Source: a virus (taxonomy: Duplodnaviria; Caudoviricetes). Taken from it: DNA of 26,538 nucleotides. The notes under the pieces are model-generated. The model was not told the origin of the DNA. It worked only from the letters and a program-made list of their open reading frames with translations, and did no database searches. The position numbers and the translations under genes are program-made. This document shows, piece by piece, positions 1,176 to 26,165 of this stretch. The stretch's first letter is position 1, and every line of letters begins with the position of its first letter. Location of the stretch: IMG/VR virus record IMGVR_UViG_3300018070_000016, positions 1 through 26,538 of that record; one strand, 5' to 3'.

Positions 1176-1429
1176 TTACAATTCCTCAAATAGAAGTAAA
1201 GAGCTTCCAGAATTTAAACTCTAGGGAGGATGAGCCGAGTCTCGAATAGTTAGATGTTTTTTTCCTTTCTTCTTCCGCATACAATAAACAGATCTTAAAA
1301 TGCTTATATTGCCTTCTCGCCCTATAGAATTACGCTTTAACAGAAAAAGGATGTGAAAGGCCAACGGCAAAGCCCTCCACGCCGAGTAGTAAGCTTCTCA
1401 AGGCTAATAAGACTTGTGCAAGGTGTCCG

Positions 1430-1702
1430 ATTCTACCGAAAGAAGCAGCTAGCTTCAACATACTACGCAGAAAATTTGGCTATAGCATACAGGTGATCGC
1501 AAAGATCTTCGGCCGCAGCACCTCAACAGTCTCGCGCATTCTAAACTTTAACATCAAGCTTGGGCTTATGCGTAAGGTCGACTTGCGAAAATTACCCACA
1601 AGAATAAAGCATCTGCAGGCGCTCCGACAACATGCTACGCTCTTGCGGTACATAGAGCTTTGGACGCAATGGATTATCAGTGACGAGGGAAAACCGCCCT
1701 AA
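1430..1702 (+). CDS. helix-turn-helix DNA-binding protein (start uncertain, probably upstream of the GTG at 1493)
   Basis: frame open from 1328; LRRKFGYSIQVIAKIFGRSTSTVSRIL forms a complete HTH only if extended upstream of 1493; AGGTG RBS at 1421-1425 precedes an in-frame ATT at 1430. Confidence 0.7.
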   Translation: MLPKEAASFNILRRKFGYSIQVIAKIFGRSTSTVSRILNFNIKLGLMRKVDLRKLPTRIKHLQALRQHATLLRYIELWTQWIISDEGKPP

Positions 1703-1969
1703 TACGTTTTTAGACTCTTATATACTAACTTAGATTTCTAGTCGTAAGAAGAAGAAGAACATAATAATCTAGTAGATATCCAATATTCCTTTCCACTACC
1801 ATAGCATCGAAATGTCTTTTTTAGGCTTAAGATCTTCTCGTAATTTTCGCTTAATTGTTAATATGGTCCATAGCGCCATATGATCTAGTATAGTTACTAT
1901 TGTTTAGTCTATACTACTTGCTGAGAAGATAGCTTAGATTAGTTTTCTCGCTCTACGTCTTACGTTAGT

Positions 1970-1981
1970 AAAACTTATAAA
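1970..1981 (+). promoter_or_regulatory. archaeal BRE-TATA promoter (AAAAC-TTATAAA)
   Basis: canonical TTATAAA preceded by an A-rich BRE; would place the start site near 2003-2006. Confidence 0.6.
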
Positions 1982-1997
1982 GGTAGGCGCCTACCTT
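1980..1997. repeat. 18-bp perfect palindrome AAGGTAGGCGCCTACCTT, candidate operator
   Basis: equals its own reverse complement; directly abuts the TATA box. Confidence 0.9.
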
Positions 1998-2004
1998 AGA
2001 CTGA

Positions 2005-2405
2005 GGAAAAGAATGGCAGCGCAGAGCTAAAAGCGCTTTAGAGCTTAAGCGATCACGCGCGAAAGATGCACGTACCAACGGCAGTTGACTACGGAAGAAC
2101 CGAATAGCGCTCGGGCAGAGCCTCTAGCTAGATGCAAGCTAAGCCACGCAAAACGTGGTTGAGACGCTCGAGCGAAATTAGCCTCTTAGGATTCGGTTAC
2201 GACTGAAAGGTCGCATGGGCTGAGTGCATATCCACTAAAAGTAATGCGCCTAGAAAACGCTGCTGTAACTCAGCAAGTTTGATAACGAGCCGATCCTCGA
2301 TAAGAGGAGACCAACAAGAGCACTGATTAGCACATAATCAGCCACCACGTACTAAACAGAGTTACAGGAAAAACGGCGTCTAGCTTGCGTATTACTTTAA
2401 TTTTT
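2005..2405 (+). ncRNA. candidate large structured non-coding RNA of unknown class
   Basis: no ORF of 60 aa or more; at least 10 complementary pairings, several with G-U wobbles that work on the + strand; TATA upstream and T-tract downstream. Confidence 0.65.
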
Positions 2406-2407
2406 CT
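2392..2407 (+). terminator. T-rich archaeal-type terminator
   Basis: TTACTTTAATTTTTCT immediately after the last paired segment (2381-2390). Confidence 0.4.
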
Positions 2408-2486
2408 AACCCTCGAGCCAAGTCTGCTGAAAGTCCAAGCAGAAGATCTAAGATCTCTCGAGGAGGCGACAGAAGAAGGATTGTAA

Positions 2487-2729
2487 ATGGCAAATCAAAC
2501 CGTTTTTAAAGAGTCGCAAAAAAGCGACAAAGATTCTATAGAGGCGCAGAGATGCGATTTTACCTCTAGTGAAGATCTGGCAAAAGCAAACGCTCTAAAG
2601 AAGCTTCTCATGGGAGACGAGAAGCCAAAGCGCTTCGAGCCAGTATGCAATAACTGTTCTCCTCAAGTAGCTGCCGAATGCGATAACTTCGGCTGCGAGA
2701 AGGCGATGAAAAGGAGAAGGCTACAATGA
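2487..2729 (+). CDS. small Cys-rich (Zn-finger-like) protein
   Basis: CxxC...C....C near the C-terminus; ATGA overlap with the next gene. Confidence 0.75.
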   Translation: MANQTVFKESQKSDKDSIEAQRCDFTSSEDLAKANALKKLLMGDEKPKRFEPVCNNCSPQVAAECDNFGCEKAMKRRRLQ

Positions 2730-3085
2730 CAATGGCCAGAAACGATGCTAAGATGCATCAGATCTCGGAGAGACACGAGATCTCCGGAGAAGGAAAAATC
2801 TGCGAAGCTCGATACAGTAAATATGCGCTTCTAGTCGCTCGAATAGAGCTTCTTACTTACGATCTAGCTCAATTTAAGCGAGATCCAGAAAACCAAAAAG
2901 AGCTAGATAAAATGAAGGATATAGCTCTTAACGAAATCGAGAACAGTCAAGGATCCTGCTTAACAGCGTTCTTAGAAGCGTTTATCCTCGCAGATCTCGA
3001 GCATTCAACCATACTCTTACCTGTTTTTGAATATCTACGGAAGAAGCACAACTGGAGGAAAGCTTCTCCGTCAACATTCTGCTAA
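2726..3085 (+). CDS. hypothetical protein
   Basis: 119-aa ORF, translationally coupled, GGAG RBS. Confidence 0.75.
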   Translation: MTMARNDAKMHQISERHEISGEGKICEARYSKYALLVARIELLTYDLAQFKRDPENQKELDKMKDIALNEIENSQGSCLTAFLEAFILADLEHSTILLPVFEYLRKKHNWRKASPSTFC

Positions 3086-3102: not shown

Positions 3103-3987
3103 ATGGAAGGAAAAAACGACTCAATAAACTTCTATCAGCCACTTGACACCTGGAGAGACTACGGTATATTAGAGTATCCGATCGAGTTTAACGAAAAACA
3201 GAGCGGATACAAGGCCATAACTCGAAAGAATACGCTCATCGCAATAGTCTCAAACCGCTACAAAGTGCTACCTAACGAAGAGGCCGTTGAGATCGCAGAT
3301 CAAGCAGCAGAATCCGCCGGGTTAGTTCCTTTCACAGTCGACCATTTCGGAGAAGCAAAAGACTGGTATCAACCACTAAGCGACCACGTTATACTCGATC
3401 AAGGCGAAACACGCGTCCACGCTCTCTACGCGATTAACAAAAGCTTCACAGTCGGAGGCGAAAAAATGTTTCTAGGCGTAGGCGTCCACAACTCTATAGA
3501 CGGAACAATGGGCTTCGGCTGCGGAGTCTTCAGCTTCAGGCATGCATGCGCTAACATGGTATTCGCAGGGATGAGAGGATATATGCAGAGCTTTGACGAG
3601 AGAAAGACTCTAGCATACATCTATCGCAGACACGTTGGAGAGATCTTTGAAAGCGACAAGATACAAGCCGAATTAAAGATCTCAATAGAGGCAGTAATGA
3701 ACAAGGCTCAGAACATTCTCGAGGCCTACAGATTAATGGAGCGTCAAGAAGTAACGCTTGAAATCATCAAGAAACTTTGGAAGCAACCATTACCCGCAAA
3801 GATCTATCCGGAATGGATACCGTCAGAGAAAGGTCAAGCTCAGCTAGACGCGAAAGGCAAAAACGTTTGGGATCTCTACAACGCCTTCACAGCTAACATT
3901 TGGCATAACGAAAGCAGTTCAATCCGCACTAAGATGCACAACTTTACTTCGCTACATAAAGTCCTGACAATAGAGGTGAGACAATAA
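3103..3987 (+). CDS. DUF932-family (TIGR03299-like phage/plasmid) protein
   Basis: motifs VSNRYKVLPNEE, HNSIDG, ACANM, RRH, and WDLYNAFT near the C-terminus; GGAGGTG RBS favours the ATG at 3103. Confidence 0.8.
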   Translation: MEGKNDSINFYQPLDTWRDYGILEYPIEFNEKQSGYKAITRKNTLIAIVSNRYKVLPNEEAVEIADQAAESAGLVPFTVDHFGEAKDWYQPLSDHVILDQGETRVHALYAINKSFTVGGEKMFLGVGVHNSIDGTMGFGCGVFSFRHACANMVFAGMRGYMQSFDERKTLAYIYRRHVGEIFESDKIQAELKISIEAVMNKAQNILEAYRLMERQEVTLEIIKKLWKQPLPAKIYPEWIPSEKGQAQLDAKGKNVWDLYNAFTANIWHNESSSIRTKMHNFTSLHKVLTIEVRQ

Positions 3988-14749: not shown

Positions 14750-15899
14750 GAAGTATCACGCTTCCGCTTGGGCCGATAATCGTTATTATTCCTGAATCTC
14801 CATATAAGGTTACTGCGATCCCTGAGATGTCAACTCCTATGAGAAATGCTGTGCCGTTAATTGTTTTTGTGGTCATGGCCTCTTTTAGTTCAGCGTTTCC
14901 TGAGAGCGTCTTCGTGACGTCTGTAAGTATTAGCCGAGCGTTACCATTGAGAGTCTTTAAGATCGAACCAACAAGGCGTGCGTCTCCGCTAATATTCTTG
15001 CTCGAGGCGATAGTTATTGAGGCGTTTCCGTTTCTAGTTACTGTGGACGTAGTTTTTAGGCGAGCATTCCCATTCAGAGTCTTCGACTGAACCGCCTTAA
15101 CGTAAGCATTCCCAGCAACCGACTTGGTTGTACCCGGAATCGTTATTGTAGCATTTCCATTGAGAGTCTTTGACGTTGTGGTTTTGAGTCTAGCGTTACC
15201 TGAAACGGTTTTGGTTGATGTAATAAGACCGCTAAAAATCTCTGCGTTTCCATTAATCGTCTTTGTTGAAGTGGTTTTCAGTTGCGCGTTAGCATTTATA
15301 CTCTTTTGGCTAGCGAGTAGAAGCGCTGCGTTTCCATTAATGGTCTTGCTCTCTGTGGTCTTGATTCGTGCGTTTGCGTTGACGCTTGACTGTCGAAGCG
15401 CTTTAATCCACGATGAGCCATTGAGCGTCTTGATTATCTGTTGGATTGTGGCGTTTCCGCTTCGCGTTACGGAGACCGTGTTCTTGAGAGTCGCGTTTCC
15501 ATTTAAAGTCTTTGAGACTGTGGCTTTAACATGAGCGCTTCCATTACGCGTAATTGTCTGCGTAGTTTTAATAGTGGCGTTTCCGCTTCGCGTCTTTGTG
15601 GTTTCAGTGATCGAGATGTCGAGACGTTTGCCGCCAGTTGGAGGAGACGTAGATAGTCCGGTTATAGTTGTTATCTGCGTGTGACCTAGCGCTGTGACTC
15701 TAATCTCATTATCAGCAGCATAATCTGTGGTGTACTTAGTTTTGTCTCCAAGATCTATAAAGTATTGGCCAACAGAATTTGTGGGTGCGGCAAACTCTTG
15801 ACTGTTCGTGTGGTTACGGATAGTGACGCTTGTTGCTGACTGAGCGACTCCGTTCTTGGTGATTACACCATAAATTATGTACGGATTCTGCTCAGTCAT
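14742..15899 (-). CDS. fibre/spike protein with about 18 tandem ~14-aa repeats
   Basis: repeat consensus (T/S)KT(L/I)NGNA(R/T)(L/I)KTTx after an N-terminal beta-sandwich-like domain. Confidence 0.8.
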   Translation of the reverse strand: MTEQNPYIIYGVITKNGVAQSATSVTIRNHTNSQEFAAPTNSVGQYFIDLGDKTKYTTDYAADNEIRVTALGHTQITTITGLSTSPPTGGKRLDISITETTKTRSGNATIKTTQTITRNGSAHVKATVSKTLNGNATLKNTVSVTRSGNATIQQIIKTLNGSSWIKALRQSSVNANARIKTTESKTINGNAALLLASQKSINANAQLKTTSTKTINGNAEIFSGLITSTKTVSGNARLKTTTSKTLNGNATITIPGTTKSVAGNAYVKAVQSKTLNGNARLKTTSTVTRNGNASITIASSKNISGDARLVGSILKTLNGNARLILTDVTKTLSGNAELKEAMTTKTINGTAFLIGVDISGIAVTLYGDSGIITIIGPSGSVILLG

Positions 15900-15914
15900 G
15901 GTTTACCCTAGCTG

Positions 15915-18815
15915 TCAATAGATATGGTTCCAAACTCCTATTGCGCTGACGAGAACGAAAAACTTGCCATCTGCAGTAATGAGTACAGAGTCTTCTCCTC
16001 CAAAGTCCTTGATAAACTCGTACCTAGTGCCATTTGCGTATTGAAACGCGAACATGGTCCAACTTATTCCGTCATAGGTTAAGCTCGCGTTCACTTCTCC
16101 AATTGTGTGTGAGACATCATAGAGCGTGGCAGTAAAATTATTCCACCCGACGCTCATGCTTGTGTGGATTGCTGAGAAGTAGCTGAACGCGAAAAGGTTA
16201 TCGTCAGAATTATCTGTAAGGTTTGTTGCCATGAAAGCAATCATCGCGCGTCCAAGAGCAACGAATGGCACTGCATGGTTAGGGTCAGAAGGGAATCTCC
16301 AATTATCAGGAACGATCCCTATGCGTTCAACAGGCTTCCATGCTGTTGCGTTCTTGCGTAACAGCCAAATTGACTCATCATCAATTCCATACATGCCTTT
16401 CTCTGGAAAGCTTGTTGTTGTGAGCCAATTGAAAAGTAAATCTCCAGTGCCTTCGAGGCTTATGATAGGGTAAGTGTTTGATGCAGTAATTGTTGACACT
16501 TCATAGTCTTGTGGAGACCATGAGTCATTGGCGTTGCGCTGAGAAAACCTTATGCGACCAGTACTTGAAGGTGTTGTCTCATTTGTTCGATAAACCAAAT
16601 AGAGTACGCCTTTATCTGAGATTCCGCTGAACCTGCGCCCTTCACTCATACCATAGGCGCTGATTGTCTCATTAGCTTGCAAAACATGACTTAGAATCTT
16701 ACGCCCTGCTAATCTATAGTTTGCAACGCTTCTGAAAATGACATAGGCATCATCATTCGTTAGAGCGTAAATATATGCTTCTTGCACCTGTGCAGCTGGA
16801 ATATAATCTGACGCAACTTTTGGATATCCTGGGTAAGTCGTCCATGTTCCATCAGTGGCATTGCTAAAGGTGACGTATATCTCGCGACTCGTACTATTTT
16901 CAAGGAAGTGACAATAATAGACGTAACCGCTTGATGTAACAGCTAAACCGTTTGGAGCGAAACGTGCGAAGCTTGGAATCCCAGAGCGACTACGAGCCGT
17001 CTGCAGTGGCGTCCAGATAATTGTTCTATTTGGGAAAAGTTCTCCGCGCCTATAAAAGAGATCGGCGATTGATGTCTCATTGCAATAGTTGTAATGGATG
17101 TAGCTGTGTCCATCTCGGATTTCTGGTGTGACGTAGAACATTCCAGATTGTTGCTCGCCACCATCGTATTGAAAAGCTGCGCCATAAATCCATGTGAAGC
17201 CATCGCTTGAAGTGCTGTAGCAGTACCATGTTCCATTATAGTAGAATGACCAATAGAGCTTCGTTATGTTTGGATCGTGAATGATTTTGCGTCCGAGACT
17301 ATGACAGTGTCCGCTAGCTTCAACGTTTGCTGCGATAGTGCTGATTGATGTTGATGGGTTGAAGCCTTCCCAGATCGTCCAAACATAGATTATGTCAGCA
17401 GCTTCCCAATTGTTAGCTGTGTCATTCGCGTAAAGTTTTGCAGCAACAACATATGATGTATCTGTTGGCATGGTTACAGTGAAGTTGCTCCAAGCCTCGC
17501 TAGGCGATCCTGCGAAGATCCCTGTTACGTTGCTTCCCCAACTTCCTGTTGCGTTATGCGAATATTTGTACGCGTTGAGACCTGTATTGTCAAGCCATTT
17601 GACGGAAATGGTTGTGGTTGAGTCTGCTGCACCATAGTGTGTTGGCGCTGCAGTTTCCTTTGGTCCATTATAGAGCCTAAGGTACATGCGAGTAACTCGG
17701 ATGCTTTGAAAGCTCTCAATGAAATTGTACATGGAGACCTTGAGATCGTTGATCTTTGTAATGGTATTCAGAAAGGAAGTAGTGTTATATTCAACCCAAA
17801 TGTATCTGCTCATTTCAAACGTGAAGTTTACAGCAACCTGCGTCACACCATTATCTAGGTACGCGGTTACTGTTCTTTCAAGTGGAGAAAAGCTTGCCAC
17901 GCCTTCAATCCGAAGATAACTCGCCTGTACAGTAGCGAGATCTGTTGGCTCAAATAGAAACCATGAATCGTTGCCAGTTACAGATGAAGTCGTAATGTAG
18001 TTAGACGAGCTATTACTTAGGTATGGTAAAGCATCAACATTCATCCATCCGTCAGTTGAAGTGCTGTCAAACTTGCTAGTCCACAAGATGTTTGAGGCGT
18101 ATGTTCCAGTAACATAGAGCTTAGCAGGAAACCCAGTTTCATTACAGCTAAACTGGACATCCTCTTTCGCTGCAGGAACATTCAATACGATCTCTCTTTG
18201 GCTTCGGACAAGAACGTATGTCATGCCTCTTGGCACTAGAAGCGCTGTACTGTTGAGCGTAATATTGTAGTATATGTTGACGCTTGAGATGCTTGTCGTA
18301 CCCAAATTTCCCTGCGCTGCTCCTTCCCAGAACGTGTGATTATAGTCTGAGAGCCAAAGTCCATTAGTATGAGGAAAAGCTGCAGGCGCATAATCGCTTT
18401 TTATTAGAGTTTCAATGTAGAATTGGGAGACGTCACATTCCTTTAAGGTTACGTTGAGACTGAAAATTATGCTGCTGATAGTCATGCCCTTTGGGATAGA
18501 AGCTGTATTGAAAGGAAACATGCACCGATAAATCGCGTAAGTCGTTGAAATCTTGGACTGACCAATACGCATCGTCCCAGAAGTAACATTATTCGCTGCG
18601 TTTGCTTGGTCATGGCTTGTGGCATAAACTGTACTTGAATGCATATCTTGAGTATCGCCTGCGGTTGCGTTGAAAGTCAACGTTATTGGTCCCGCGCTAG
18701 TAGCAGGAAAACTCTTTGGAGAAAAGAAAACCCATCCGAAAATAGAGGCTACAACAACTATCACAGCCGCGATTATTGCGTAAACTTTCTTGCCAAAAGA
18801 CTTCAAGTTTTGCAT
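15915..18815 (-). CDS. large membrane-anchored/secreted glycoprotein, adhesin-like
   Basis: N-terminal KK plus hydrophobic helix; roughly 29 N-x-S/T sequons counted by eye; DNRLRE-like segment (YRCMFPFNTASIP.G.TISS) and BNR-like motifs (STSSDGFTW, SNATDGTW). Confidence 0.8.
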   Translation of the reverse strand: MQNLKSFGKKVYAIIAAVIVVVASIFGWVFFSPKSFPATSAGPITLTFNATAGDTQDMHSSTVYATSHDQANAANNVTSGTMRIGQSKISTTYAIYRCMFPFNTASIPKGMTISSIIFSLNVTLKECDVSQFYIETLIKSDYAPAAFPHTNGLWLSDYNHTFWEGAAQGNLGTTSISSVNIYYNITLNSTALLVPRGMTYVLVRSQREIVLNVPAAKEDVQFSCNETGFPAKLYVTGTYASNILWTSKFDSTSTDGWMNVDALPYLSNSSSNYITTSSVTGNDSWFLFEPTDLATVQASYLRIEGVASFSPLERTVTAYLDNGVTQVAVNFTFEMSRYIWVEYNTTSFLNTITKINDLKVSMYNFIESFQSIRVTRMYLRLYNGPKETAAPTHYGAADSTTTISVKWLDNTGLNAYKYSHNATGSWGSNVTGIFAGSPSEAWSNFTVTMPTDTSYVVAAKLYANDTANNWEAADIIYVWTIWEGFNPSTSISTIAANVEASGHCHSLGRKIIHDPNITKLYWSFYYNGTWYCYSTSSDGFTWIYGAAFQYDGGEQQSGMFYVTPEIRDGHSYIHYNYCNETSIADLFYRRGELFPNRTIIWTPLQTARSRSGIPSFARFAPNGLAVTSSGYVYYCHFLENSTSREIYVTFSNATDGTWTTYPGYPKVASDYIPAAQVQEAYIYALTNDDAYVIFRSVANYRLAGRKILSHVLQANETISAYGMSEGRRFSGISDKGVLYLVYRTNETTPSSTGRIRFSQRNANDSWSPQDYEVSTITASNTYPIISLEGTGDLLFNWLTTTSFPEKGMYGIDDESIWLLRKNATAWKPVERIGIVPDNWRFPSDPNHAVPFVALGRAMIAFMATNLTDNSDDNLFAFSYFSAIHTSMSVGWNNFTATLYDVSHTIGEVNASLTYDGISWTMFAFQYANGTRYEFIKDFGGEDSVLITADGKFFVLVSAIGVWNHIY

Positions 18816-20997: not shown

Positions 20998-21570
20998 TTA
21001 AAGCTTTTTTCTAGTGAACCAGAAAAGGATTTGAGGAATATCTCCGCGCACTTCCTTCTCAATAAGCTCGAAGCCTTCTGCAAGAAACAGAGCCTCATAA
21101 TTATGTAGCCAATTATGTCGACTTAGATCCTTAGGCGCTGTTTCTTCTGAATACTCGTAGATTAAGGCGCTATTGCAAGAGTCGCAGATATTATGTACTG
21201 CAGCTTGAATCTTGTCCGGAGGAATATGCATTAAGACTGTGCGCGTCATTACGAAATCAAATGTTGTTGGTAGAGGCTCTTTCGTTATATCATGTAGAAA
21301 GATATCAACAAGCCATCCATGAAACTTTACACGTTTCAAAGACTCTTGTATCATTGTTGGCGAGAAATCACATCCGGCAGCCTTCAAGAGGTCCTTATAG
21401 TATCGGATCAGCATGCCTGTTCCGCAGCCGATCTCGCAAAGACTCTCAGGTTTTGCTCTCTCAATAGCGTTTTTTAGAACGAGACGACCAAAGAGATCCA
21501 CCTGTTGCTCATTGTATCCTAGCCCTGCGCGTTGCTCCCAATAATCTGCGACATCGAATCCTTCGCTCAA
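20998..21570 (-). CDS. class I SAM-dependent methyltransferase (small-molecule/glycan type)
   Basis: EIGCGTG motif I, GCDFSPTMI, FDFVMTRTVLMHIP; no DNA-MTase DPPY/NPPY/PC motif. Confidence 0.9.
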   Translation of the reverse strand: MSEGFDVADYWEQRAGLGYNEQQVDLFGRLVLKNAIERAKPESLCEIGCGTGMLIRYYKDLLKAAGCDFSPTMIQESLKRVKFHGWLVDIFLHDITKEPLPTTFDFVMTRTVLMHIPPDKIQAAVHNICDSCNSALIYEYSEETAPKDLSRHNWLHNYEALFLAEGFELIEKEVRGDIPQILFWFTRKKL

Positions 21571-22556
21571 GGCTTGATCCCTGCTAACTCACAGAAGCGC
21601 ATGGCCACAGGTTTTTCATCATGCACTTTCTTGGCGTAGTTGAGTACGCGTTGACCCATTACGCGCCTAAGATCCTTTCGTAGAGCAAGCGTTAAGACTC
21701 GCTCGATTAACTCGTCCTCATTGTTAAAATTAATAAAAGGATTCTCGTAACCATGTTGCTTCATAACGTCTGTTACTTCTTTTATGAGCCTTACGAATAC
21801 GGGTATGCCAAACGCTGCAGCTTCAATAGCGATCATACCGTAAGGATTAATGAAGGGAGGAATTTGGTCAATATAGAGATCAACATTTGAGAGAAGTCTA
21901 AGAAGACAATCCCAAGGCTGCTGTTGTATCGCCTGATATTCGATCTCTGGCCTATTCTCAATAAGCTTCGTGATCGCTGAGTAGATTATCTTGCTTCCTT
22001 TCTTAGCCTCATCGCTTGGAGCATGCGTTATTACGCAGCGCACGCGCTCGACATCCCAATCTTTCATAGCAGCGATATCAAGTCTTGATCTTCCGTACTT
22101 TAATTGTAGATCTGTAATTGAGCGGGTAACTGGTAGCCATTTAGCATTAGCTTCCTTTGGCGCAAATAGTAAGAGATCGGGTGTACTGACAAGAATCTGC
22201 GTGTCCTCTGGCAAAAGCGTCTTTGTCTCGGTATAGAGCGCTTCACCATACATTCTCAAGTCTGTTCCATGATAATAGTGCAAAACTTTCTTGCCTTTAA
22301 GCATCTCCTTTGTGAGGCCTAACCCTTCAAACAATGGTGAAATAAATGTATGGAAAACGAGAATATCTGCGTCCTTGATGACTTTTTGGCATACTGCTAG
22401 GTTATAGTGTCTCATTTCCATATGTGTCGGATAATGTGCAAAACTGTCAGAGCTTCGGAGAGAAAGCGTACTGTGTTCTGTAAATCTGTTTAACGCGTGA
22501 GCTAGACTATAGCTCGCTCCGGCAGGATCATATGTTGTGAGGCTTAAGATCTTCAT
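21567..22556 (-). CDS. GT-B fold (GT4-like) glycosyltransferase
   Basis: YHGTDLR, VSTPDLL, HAPS...KG, D..IDQ....YGM.AIEAAAFGIPV. Confidence 0.85.
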   Translation of the reverse strand: MKILSLTTYDPAGASYSLAHALNRFTEHSTLSLRSSDSFAHYPTHMEMRHYNLAVCQKVIKDADILVFHTFISPLFEGLGLTKEMLKGKKVLHYYHGTDLRMYGEALYTETKTLLPEDTQILVSTPDLLLFAPKEANAKWLPVTRSITDLQLKYGRSRLDIAAMKDWDVERVRCVITHAPSDEAKKGSKIIYSAITKLIENRPEIEYQAIQQQPWDCLLRLLSNVDLYIDQIPPFINPYGMIAIEAAAFGIPVFVRLIKEVTDVMKQHGYENPFINFNNEDELIERVLTLALRKDLRRVMGQRVLNYAKKVHDEKPVAMRFCELAGIKP

Positions 22557-22837
22557 TTAGGCTTCTTCTTTGGTGCTGTTATCGTTACGTCTTCAACAGG
22601 TTTCTTTTCTTCCTCATGCAAAACGCGTATAGCGATAAGTTTTCCATATTCGTTCAGGTGAAAGTGTACGACTGCAGCGCCTTCTTTTACTAGATCTTCC
22701 CAGACTTCAAAAGACTCGTTTGATGATAGGTCGTTTACATATTCTTGTAGCGCGGTATAGAAGCCTCTCTTATGCAGTTCAGCCATTAATTCCTGATGAT
22801 TCATAGAACCTTGATTATCTCGTTTGCTTTTTAGCAT
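22553..22837 (-). CDS. hypothetical protein
   Basis: 94-aa ORF overlapping both glycosyltransferase genes. Confidence 0.65.
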   Translation of the reverse strand: MLKSKRDNQGSMNHQELMAELHKRGFYTALQEYVNDLSSNESFEVWEDLVKEGAAVVHFHLNEYGKLIAIRVLHEEEKKPVEDVTITAPKKKPK

Positions 22838-23552
22838 TTGCGGTTTTTAGATTCTCTGGTTCGATCCAAGCGTGTTTCTGAAGCATATTGAGCATGTAGT
22901 TATGGTGAGGCATCATACGGTTTAAAGGCTTAAGATATTTGAAGTGTGCGATCGCGGATTTGAATGTCTGCGCTGTTGGGTAATTATCCTCTATTAGTCT
23001 ATCAAACCTGTCTCGAATATGCCAATGTGTGCCTTTATAGTGCATTCCTTCAAGCTTTTTGAATACTCTCGGATGCCAATAAGGATACATGCGGTCAGCG
23101 TCTTGCCCAAGATTAACAAGAGGCATGCGTCCAACGTAGCAGCCAGAGTTTATGATTTGCCAAAGCGCCTCATCTACGTCTCCGATTATCATCTCGTCAG
23201 CGTCAACGCCTACGAAATAGTCTCCGTTTGGAACAGCGTTAATCATTGCATCACGCTTTACGTTCTGATTAGGCCAGGGTTGCCCATTTGGAGGATTAAG
23301 AATCTTATAGCTAGGCATACCGTGAAAAGATTTGATTAGCTCGAGTGAGCCGTCTGTACTCCAAGCTTCAGCTTTAGGGTAATACTTCCGCATATCTTCA
23401 AGATATTTAGCGTAGGCGCCATCTGCGAAGATAATGCTATCGAAATGATCTACTAAGCTTTCAATTGAGCTTGACAGAAAGCATCGGTCGTCATAGAGCA
23501 TAACGGTCGCATGAATCTTCGGCATATGAGACACTTGAGAATCAATCTTCAT
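22815..23552 (-). CDS. GT-A fold (GT2-like) glycosyltransferase
   Basis: IIFADG, KRD, GDYFVGVDADE (DxD), RVFK....Y.G.H, I.HF.Y. Confidence 0.85.
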   Translation of the reverse strand: MKIDSQVSHMPKIHATVMLYDDRCFLSSSIESLVDHFDSIIFADGAYAKYLEDMRKYYPKAEAWSTDGSLELIKSFHGMPSYKILNPPNGQPWPNQNVKRDAMINAVPNGDYFVGVDADEMIIGDVDEALWQIINSGCYVGRMPLVNLGQDADRMYPYWHPRVFKKLEGMHYKGTHWHIRDRFDRLIEDNYPTAQTFKSAIAHFKYLKPLNRMMPHHNYMLNMLQKHAWIEPENLKTANAKKQTR

Positions 23553-23645: not shown

Positions 23646-24719
23646 CTAGCTTATGGCAGTTGTCAAGCAGAGGATTCTTACGGCTTCTTTCGCGTCCAGG
23701 ACCTTAACGCCGAATGTGTGAGATGCGGTTAAGCGCAGCTTTCTGGTTGCGATCTGTTTGTCTGTCTCTATCAATAGATCTCTCTTTGGCGCTAGAGCAA
23801 GGCATCTTTTTGGTCGCATAAGCCACTGTACTTCGCATGTTCCGGTTGATCCGGATGCTGTGCGTTTCTTGGAGTCAACTCTGCCTCCGATTAGTATTGT
23901 TACGCCTAGCCACTTCTCAATCATGGTGTTTGTCAATGGTGCACCGATACCGTACATTATGGTTGCGTTGCTAGTGAATGTTTTGAGTAGCGCTCCGTAA
24001 CCTTTTGGTGTCATGTAGAGGATTAGGCCGGCATTTTGTGGTGCAACATTTTTCTGTGCAGCGAGAAGCAGTGCGATTGCTTTTGGTATTGATAGAATTG
24101 AGAACCCTGTTGAGCCTGTGTCGACAACGGTTCCAGCAAAATTCGTTCCAGTAAAGGCTATCAAAGCAGCTATGAGGTTTGAGTCTTCGGCTCTGCGTGC
24201 AGCAATAACGTATCTGGAGTTTAGCTCGTCCAGGAGGTTGCGGTCGATCTTTTCGATGTCAGCATAGCCTATATCGCTCCAAGAGCCCGCTTCTTTAAGT
24301 ACAGTTGTCAATACGGCTACGAGACCTGTGGTTTCGCCTGAGAAGGCATCGCCAACATTCGTTAGTGTTTGGAAGTCATGGTCTTTGACGTAGGGAATGT
24401 TTACAATATCGCCAACTTTTCCAGAGATCTCTTCTGTGATCCAAACATAATCTCTGAGATTAGCTGCGATCTCATATAGCGTATAGTTGGGTATTGTGAG
24501 GCTCCACTGTTCTTTGATATCGCTTTCTCTGCAATGTTTCAAGGATTCCACTAACTTATTCATATCCTTATTACTTCCGATAACAACGCCTTTTCCTTCT
24601 GCCGGAGGCTTTGGCGTCATTTGCTCGGCTACGCTTTTGACGGCTTGTTTGACTGTCTCAGTCATGGCTTCTTTGAGCCCTGAGAGATCAAGTTTCACAA
24701 CTTGTTCTTGTTCACTCAT
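23646..24719 (-). CDS. major capsid protein (HK97 fold inferred)
   Basis: 357 aa directly after the protease; GKVGDIVNIP, C-terminal FGVKVLD..AV; perfect AAGGTGATCA RBS. Confidence 0.85.
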   Translation of the reverse strand: MSEQEQVVKLDLSGLKEAMTETVKQAVKSVAEQMTPKPPAEGKGVVIGSNKDMNKLVESLKHCRESDIKEQWSLTIPNYTLYEIAANLRDYVWITEEISGKVGDIVNIPYVKDHDFQTLTNVGDAFSGETTGLVAVLTTVLKEAGSWSDIGYADIEKIDRNLLDELNSRYVIAARRAEDSNLIAALIAFTGTNFAGTVVDTGSTGFSILSIPKAIALLLAAQKNVAPQNAGLILYMTPKGYGALLKTFTSNATIMYGIGAPLTNTMIEKWLGVTILIGGRVDSKKRTASGSTGTCEVQWLMRPKRCLALAPKRDLLIETDKQIATRKLRLTASHTFGVKVLDAKEAVRILCLTTAIS

Positions 24720-24839
24720 TTGTGATCACCTTTTCAAACTTGCCTATTTCTGCGCTCAGTGCGCTGACGGAAGCCTCTGGCTGTGTGTCTTCCGCCCAAC
24801 ATCATCCTGTCGGGTAGTCTATTTGTTACTACAAGGTAA

Positions 24840-26165
24840 CTAGGATATTTTTGCAACGATCTTGCCAAGACGCTTTGCTTTTGCTAGCTTCTCCTTTATG
24901 CCTGCGTTATCTTTCTCAAGTGCGCTTAGTTTCTCAAGAAGCTCTGTGTTTGTCCGCGTCAACGCAATGTTCGCGCTCAGCGTATCCTGGTATTTCTTGA
25001 AGGTATCAGTTGAGTTCTTTCCTATAGCTTCATGCTCTGTTTTGAGTTCTGCGTTCTCGGTTCCTAAATCTTCAATACGTCTCTGAAACGCTGTAATTCT
25101 TTTGCTGTCGTCCACTTTTTCTTCGTCTCTGATCTTGATTCGAGTCTCAAGCTTTGTGATCGCTTGATTCAGCGTATCATTTGCTCCGCGTAGTTTATTG
25201 TTCTCGGTCTCAGTCTCAACGTTTATCTTCTCAAGCTCGGCTATTCTAAGTTCAGAAGCTTTCAACGCGCTTTCTGCTTTAATCGCTCGGAGCTTCGCAT
25301 CTGAAATCTCGAGTCCGCTGTGTCTATCTGCGTTGCTAATAGCCGGTTTTGAATCTGTCTTGACCTCAACTTTCTGTGGTACCTTGATTTTGAAGCGGAC
25401 CTCAAACTCGTTGCGCTTATACTGTAAGGCCTCTGAAATGAATTTCTCAGATGGGAATATACGCGCAGTTGCAAACCCGGGTAATGTGTCAAGCGTCAAT
25501 AGTGCGCAGCCAGTAAATTTGAATGCGCCATCTCTATCGGCTTCGAGGCTTACGTTTACTATGCCTCTTTGATCGAGCATCTGATAGAGCTTCACGCCCT
25601 TCGCGCAGACTGTGCAAACAACGTCTTTTGGCACTTGAAGAATGGCCTCTACCGCTCCTTCCTCATAGTTTGCGTCAATGTACTTTACGGTCTCTGGTAG
25701 CATAAGGCGTCTGTTATGATTAATGTTCATTGGTACGCCGATTATGCTTTTTGCTGCAGCTTCGAGTTCAGGTTCTGAGTACGGGTTTCCATTCATGCTA
25801 TCATATGGAAAAGCTACTGTAACCTTGTAGAATTTGTTGTTTTCATCTTCTCTAAGGGCTGTAAGCATATCTTTTGCCCATTGGAAACTTTCAAAGAATT
25901 TTTCGTATGCGTGCGTCTCGTCCAGGCTGTAGTCATCTACGAATTGGTAATATTGCCAAGCTGCAAACGGTTCAAGGTTCTTGTCGCCATGCGCGTATGT
26001 TGTTTGGAAGTCTTGGTAGATCTTTTTGAAGTGTGGATGTCGAAGCTCGCCCATAAGTTGCGCTCTTATGGACGCGCAATAGGCTGCCGGGTCGCCTTTA
26101 TCAGCGTTTTTGGCTTTACAGTCATCAAAATCTGTGTATCCTGCTTTTGTCCAATCACAAGGCAT
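24840..26165 (-). CDS. prohead protease fused to a coiled-coil scaffold
   Basis: SMNGNPY..EL......G.P.NINH (His), VNVSLE (Ser), F.G.ALL...PG; long C-terminal coiled coil. Confidence 0.8.
   Translation of the reverse strand: MPCDWTKAGYTDFDDCKAKNADKGDPAAYCASIRAQLMGELRHPHFKKIYQDFQTTYAHGDKNLEPFAAWQYYQFVDDYSLDETHAYEKFFESFQWAKDMLTALREDENNKFYKVTVAFPYDSMNGNPYSEPELEAAAKSIIGVPMNINHNRRLMLPETVKYIDANYEEGAVEAILQVPKDVVCTVCAKGVKLYQMLDQRGIVNVSLEADRDGAFKFTGCALLTLDTLPGFATARIFPSEKFISEALQYKRNEFEVRFKIKVPQKVEVKTDSKPAISNADRHSGLEISDAKLRAIKAESALKASELRIAELEKINVETETENNKLRGANDTLNQAITKLETRIKIRDEEKVDDSKRITAFQRRIEDLGTENAELKTEHEAIGKNSTDTFKKYQDTLSANIALTRTNTELLEKLSALEKDNAGIKEKLAKAKRLGKIVAKIS

Follow-up and report, generated by a model that had tools for sequence, protein, structure and literature searches.

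Bacterial phages are known to carry large structured RNAs. Two of these, ROOL and GOLLD, are phage-borne and protein-free and have no known function, according to passages of PMC12286853. The put RNA of phage HK022, as described in excerpts of PMC9378689, acts alone in a phage early operon, where it controls read-through. Do tailed viruses of archaea carry anything comparable? Our literature search, which lay mostly outside subscription journals, turned up no description of a large structured RNA in a virus of Bathyarchaeia, and in the accessible portion of the main text of a Bathyarchaeia virus survey (PMC10541130) none of the words noncoding, non-coding, intergenic and DUF932 occurs. Here we describe a stretch of about 400 bases in a tailed virus, likely of Bathyarchaeia, that is an uncatalogued structured element and, as modelled by folding, most likely a non-coding RNA.

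We analysed a linear virus record of 26,538 nucleotides, referred to as the window, that is about one third complete. Matches to capsid, tail-tube and baseplate proteins are encoded on its minus strand, those to capsid and tail tube marking the virus as a tailed dsDNA type. The plus strand carries a run of small genes, a DUF932 gene among them, and because of its gene content we read this run as a putative early operon. The host is likely a sediment archaeon of Bathyarchaeia, because seven of ten genome loci with relatives of the DUF932 gene lie in Bathyarchaeota or Bathyarchaeia MAGs and the HTH protein encoded upstream has a strong match in 4 of the 401 genomes examined from this class. The folded element has the HTH gene on one side and, on the other, ORF 2487, with which the plus-strand run begins; its features are collected in Table 1.

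Table 1. Features of the locus, in window coordinates
Feature	Position	Strand	Evidence or remark
Small basic HTH gene, upstream; start uncertain	1328..1702	+	104 relatives; weak HTH_38 match
Archaeal BRE and TATA promoter, predicted	1967..1982	+	one of two strict BRE-TATA matches in the window
Perfect 18-bp palindrome over the 3' end of the TATA box	1980..1997	.	self-match
Predicted non-coding RNA of about 400 nt	2003..2407	+	z -4.28; ORF-free; variant keeps pairing
Domain 1	2033..2227	+	ensemble probabilities 0.68-0.99; z -2.73 when folded alone
Domain 1 loop: 10-nt palindrome at 2122-2131, 5' strands of the two candidate pseudoknot registers	2122..2141	+	
Domain 2: rod, branched head, A/C-rich linkers	2238..2398	+	z -6.36 when folded alone; MFE = centroid
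Covarying 7-bp hairpin, 5-nt loop unchanged	2323..2341	+	contig X2 differs at 8 stem positions
Predicted leaky terminator: U-rich tract, a single run of five U	2396..2407	+	sequence
Three-way element between U-tract and first early ORF	2411..2463	+	z only -1.77
DUF932 gene of the putative downstream early operon	3103..3987	+	PF06067, E 1.8e-07

Some further observations on the window may be recorded here. The HTH protein family has a conserved C-terminal W..GE..PP end and no PHROG match; relatives of the gene often precede a low-complexity, strand-skewed stretch, possibly an origin. A tie between the HTH gene and the folded RNA was rejected, such a cassette being found in none of the eight relatives with downstream DNA (about five of them distinct). 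Methyltransferase and glycosyltransferase genes within the head-tail module (20998-23552) suggest virion glycosylation. The hexamer AGATCT occurs 38 times, against 7.9 expected from base composition, with 26 copies in the first 8 kb; a Markov model does not rank it with the largest excesses.

Does the stretch fold rather than code? The first-pass annotation, made from the sequence alone, had called it ORF-free, and indeed no ORF of at least 60 aa overlaps 2005-2405, the longest stop-free frames measuring 51-55 codons. On the plus strand this region folds with a z-score of -4.28, equalled by none of 100 shuffles, whereas its minus strand reaches -2.04. In a scan of 329 windows with approximate z-scores, the element has the lowest mean z of all 400-base spans on both strands, and all three best-folding spans coincide with it. 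Other low-z windows of the first scan (12 shuffles), which are coding, dropped to z -2.8 and -3.1 when re-tested. Moderate folding (z about -2.8 to -3.6) is also seen in the coding stretches 2480-2830 (minus strand), 15600-15920, 17560-17830 (minus strand) and 24400-24880. The linkers are A-rich, as had been noted, A accounting for 84 of 157 unpaired bases.

The element corresponds to no known class in the collections searched. In keeping with the novelty proposed at first, Rfam gives no match at E <= 1 in the whole window; a search with the region alone returned a single chance match, to a plant-virus pseudoknot (15.5 bits, E 5.6). Covariance models of GOLLD, ROOL, OLE, raiA and other large Rfam RNAs find no match in the window. 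ARAGORN predicts no tRNA or tmRNA gene, and the element contains no T-loop pattern. Nor does it resemble an archaeal box C/D sRNA: no C box is found by pattern, and of the CUGA motifs present, the one starting at 2323 is altered by the natural variant described below. We regard the element as very probably a real structured RNA; its description as a discrete, multi-domain RNA outside the catalogued classes is backed by the z-scores, the variant, the promoter, the U-tract and the Rfam result, while the transcript itself is a prediction, with a start at 2003 derived from the spacing to the TATA box.

Which helices make up this fold? All twelve pairings proposed initially, seven long-range helices and five hairpins, are present in the sequence. 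Seven of the eleven nested helices have ensemble probabilities of 0.69-1.0, but for the other four (2015-21/2258-64, 2066-71/2224-29, 2277-81/2353-57 and hairpin 2200-13) the ensemble gives no probability above 0.12. Forcing the whole nested set costs 24 kcal/mol, and adding the proposed crossing helix by simple summation still leaves it about 17 kcal/mol worse. The ensemble instead closes the multiloop of domain 1 by the stacked helices 2033-38/2222-27, 2042-47/2216-21 and 2049-54/2209-14, which enclose the inner helices 2098-2105/2191-98 and 2108-16/2166-74 and the hairpins 2076-87 and 2142-60. The rod of domain 2 consists of helices 2238-49/2387-98, 2250-54/2379-83, 2257-62/2374-79 and 2263-71/2359-67, the first of which, a 12-bp closing helix absent from the earlier model, has an ensemble probability of 0.98.

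This closing helix bears directly on the pseudoknot that had been drawn between 2132-41 and 2381-90. The 10-bp crossing helix exists, but it overlaps the stronger closing helix and excludes it, and the variant change at 2390 costs it its end pair but converts a G-U pair of the closing helix into G-C; disfavoured by energy and variant alike, the pseudoknot in its original register finds no support. A helix of at least 10 bp with at most one G-U appears in 25% of 150 shuffles, three helices of at least 10 bp in only one of the 150. Candidate registers pair either 2126-35 or 2132-41 of the domain 1 loop with 2376-90. The shifted register 2126-35/2376-85, 5-6 bases off, is compatible with the closing helix and about isoenergetic with the MFE before loop penalties; no covariation is seen in it. 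A long-range pseudoknot in this modelled register is a candidate.

Is the predicted fold maintained in nature? Part of the stretch was found in six DNA sequencing runs, one of them possibly the source of the window. A single contig of run X2, at depth 3.7, spans 2008-2451 with 14 differences from the window, and we judged these against a structure predicted from the window alone, with the variant held out. Thirteen differences lie within 2008-2405, two at unpaired and eleven at paired positions, and all eleven of the latter preserve the predicted pair: three pairs are changed on both sides, four pass from Watson-Crick to G-U and none to A-C (4 versus 0, P only 0.06), and one goes from G-U to G-C. 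When changes were placed at random, zero broken pairs were obtained in 0.7% of trials, and three double-sided changes had a P of 1e-5. Hairpin 2323..2341 holds eight of the thirteen changes, with the three double-sided pairs, two pairs changed to G-U and none broken (with the eight changes confined to this hairpin, the three double-sided pairs have a P of 0.002-0.010); this cluster may reflect one recombination event. Elsewhere in domain 2, the changes at 2365, 2388 and 2390 preserve their pairs as well. The plus-strand fold is under selection in domain 2.

In domain 1 the contigs compared have one variable site, 2177, which is unpaired and provides covariation neither for nor against the model. 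Positions 2008-2322 are more conserved than the flanks (1/315 versus 16/283 changed, P 6e-5, with a split chosen post hoc), whereas the variability of the whole RNA does not differ from that of the flanks (13/398, P 0.18). The fourteenth X2 change, at 2415, makes up, with a partner change read from the loose end of the contig, a double-sided replacement of G-C by A-U in the 7-bp helix 2411-17/2457-63 that closes the three-way element. The structure therefore extends beyond the U-tract, and continues 3' of it to about 2463.

The flanking TATA box and T-tract reported at first are both present. The palindrome over the TATA box is a candidate operator for a repressor. At the other end, termination at the U-tract is probably leaky, given the Methanococcus termination data and the lack of a strict BRE-TATA promoter match between the tract and ORF 2487. 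In Methanococcus, termination is more effective the more U4 tracts are present, and it requires aCPSF1 (excerpts of PMC8716108), and internal termination with higher abundance of the upstream RNA affects 38% of operons (excerpts of PMC10450193).

How widespread is the element? Neither nhmmer nor blastn detected a homologue in 105 DUF932 loci, and two single-sequence covariance models, R1 and R2, detected none in 100 such loci, in 19 capsid or pattern loci or in 20 viral records. With filters off, the best matches in 19 loci were partial, one of them within a coding gene at E 0.0017. R1 and R2 found nothing in sets of 101 and 150 Bathyarchaeia-class genomes, a comparison with weak single-sequence models and no positive control. 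A DNA search of 401 genomes of this class gave only three short, chance-level matches, and a phage collection gave none. Five pattern scans of viral contigs were made; four yielded only unrelated matches and one yielded the contig L137, considered below. These searches are weak, and near relatives may have been missed. We also examined the 2 kb upstream of 44 other DUF932 loci for which 1 kb or more of upstream sequence was available. A gene-free 240-base window is absent from 23 of them, and only six have one with z <= -2.4, four of the six belonging to one clade. Because most DUF932 loci have no folded, gene-free upstream stretch of this kind, the structured RNA appears to be accessory and not needed for the DUF932 operon. 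Strongly folded intergenic stretches were noted at L101:1680-2000 (z -6.9) and L005:10080-10480 (z -5.1), the latter with repeated palindromic GGTGCCACC-type units, origin-like. The idea that the RNA serves as an antisense or guide RNA for sites in the window was rejected, since there are no matches of 12 nt and three of 11 nt; the search for a partner protein, a target or an antisense match came up empty.

In a sister clade the same position is taken by a second, previously undescribed, gene-free structured RNA of about 300 bases (L013, L017, L018, L105, L106 and L137; for example L013:4565-4870). The DUF932 protein of L013 is 36% identical to that of the window, and the L137 contig also encodes a capsid relative. 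A promoter 14-mer with one free position is common to the window, five sister-clade RNA loci and L137, and the order of promoter, RNA, U-tract, hairpin and early ORF is that of the window. Across the six sequences, 98.4% of cells pair and seven pairs are double-sided versus 2.6 in shuffles, figures that are biased upward, the structure having been fitted by hand to these same sequences; one member folds alone at only z -1.35. The L137 RNA has no Rfam match, and model R3 recovers its own four members, nothing new among 22 records and nothing in 150 genomes. Both RNAs contain a two-helix module with an A-rich bulge, a pattern chosen post hoc, but the sister-clade RNA is shorter than the ~400-nt window RNA and has a different fold: pairwise z-scores of 0.2-1.5 reveal no detectable homology, and the sister-clade model does not match the window RNA; the best cross-match has E 0.44. 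Different RNAs behind the same promoter fit an exchangeable cargo slot. At L017/L106:3420-3720, upstream of the slot RNA, lie two more TATA-like promoters and modestly folded gene-free sequence.

What could such an RNA do? We tentatively favour a discrete early non-coding RNA that would be released by leaky termination and serve in trans as a scaffold, or as a decoy for a protein. The stretch folds on the plus strand into two domains, as folding and one variant show, and would be transcribed from the BRE/TATA promoter. A leaky stop at 2401-2405, postulated because of archaeal internal termination, would yield an abundant ~400-nt RNA, and read-through would supply the DUF932 operon. The folded RNA, with its A-rich junctions and conserved hairpin loop, might then bind itself or a host protein, the latter being a host RNA-binding factor targeted early in infection; this last step is drawn solely by analogy with proposals for ROOL/GOLLD-type RNAs. 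Action in trans is preferred because the RNA has its own predicted promoter and terminator, most relatives lack it and the sister clade has another RNA. The position at the head of the operon and the two competing 3' conformers, however, fit a cis-acting leader equally. Here the nascent RNA would set read-through of the U-tract. It might be an attenuator that has two 3' conformers, or it might antiterminate in the manner of put, with archaeal RNA polymerase or aCPSF1 as its target; the comparison is again with HK022 put (parts of PMC9378689 and PMC9974457), a precedent in a phage early operon. We rate a leader, the main rival, as rather unlikely. The element does separate the promoter from the first early ORF, and past the U-tract no strict promoter match occurs; 2376-2390, beside the tract, can join the domain 2 rod or pair with the loop of domain 1; transcript prefixes that end at 2265 and at 2372 form helix 2015-21/2258-64; and the sister clade repeats the arrangement. 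Yet most DUF932 relatives have no such leader, the variant changes consolidate the closing helix and not a switch partner, and no homology is detectable between the two slot RNAs, which is unexpected if they bind one polymerase surface. A more specific proposal, which we consider doubtful, is that the exchangeable RNA cassette of Bathyarchaeia viruses would be an archaeal counterpart of HK022 put, mediating protein-free read-through of U-tract/aCPSF1 termination and switching via the pseudoknot 2126-35/2376-85.

As a special case of action in trans, the RNA might assemble with itself alone, as an oligomer of the ROOL, GOLLD or OLE kind with palindromic or kissing loops as the contacts. There is indeed a 10-nt palindrome in a loop, the loop on the covarying stem is unchanged, and palindromic loop bridges are known in OLE and GOLLD (passages of PMC12286853); but about 0.4 ten-nt palindromes are expected per 400 bases, no loop-loop pairing among MFE-unpaired bases is better than -0.2 kcal/mol and no palindrome-switching variation is seen, which leaves self-assembly improbable. 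Slightly more improbable is a structured single-stranded DNA element, a replication or priming signal instead of an RNA. As single-stranded DNA both strands fold better than chance (z -3.56 and -3.20), and the element adjoins an AT-rich, inverted-repeat-rich stretch after the HTH gene. Against this reading stand the precise fit of the element between TATA box and U-tract, the A-rich junctions, the strand bias of RNA folding, the tolerance of G-U in the variant on the plus strand only (4 versus 0) and the tailed dsDNA type of the virus. A ribozyme, whether self-cleaving or a diverged core of RNase P or of a group I or II intron, is very unlikely. In favour of it are the size and multi-way junctions of the element, short stretches of which have what we take to be a loose resemblance to RNase P and intron motifs. 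The region alone, however, matches no Rfam ribozyme family at E <= 10, be it RNase P, group I, group II or the small self-cleaving ribozymes, no hammerhead core is found by pattern, and there are neither flanking exons nor an interrupted gene; a ribozyme-like function thus finds no support.

The element offers a compact, synthesisable 400-nt candidate with defined predicted ends and a natural variant, and the related clade supplies a second RNA in the same slot. Should it act in trans, it would represent a new archaeal viral RNA family; should it control read-through, it would be a case of RNA-based control of archaeal termination, bearing on how aCPSF1-dependent termination is regulated.

How, then, does this RNA compare with those described before? 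HK022 put RNA is much shorter. Both are structured and head early phage genes, but put works on E. coli RNA polymerase (excerpts of PMC9378689), and the Rfam search with the region alone showed no sequence likeness to it. Like ROOL and GOLLD, the window RNA is a large, multi-junction RNA gene on a tailed virus, though at 400 nt it is shorter than their 659 and over 800 nt (passages of PMC12286853) and, with few proven tertiary contacts, is at best a candidate for comparable complexity. Genes for tRNA, which often lie beside GOLLD and ROOL, number zero by ARAGORN in this record, itself about one third complete. Unlike ROOL and GOLLD, the window RNA has a predicted archaeal promoter of its own and heads what we read as an early operon.
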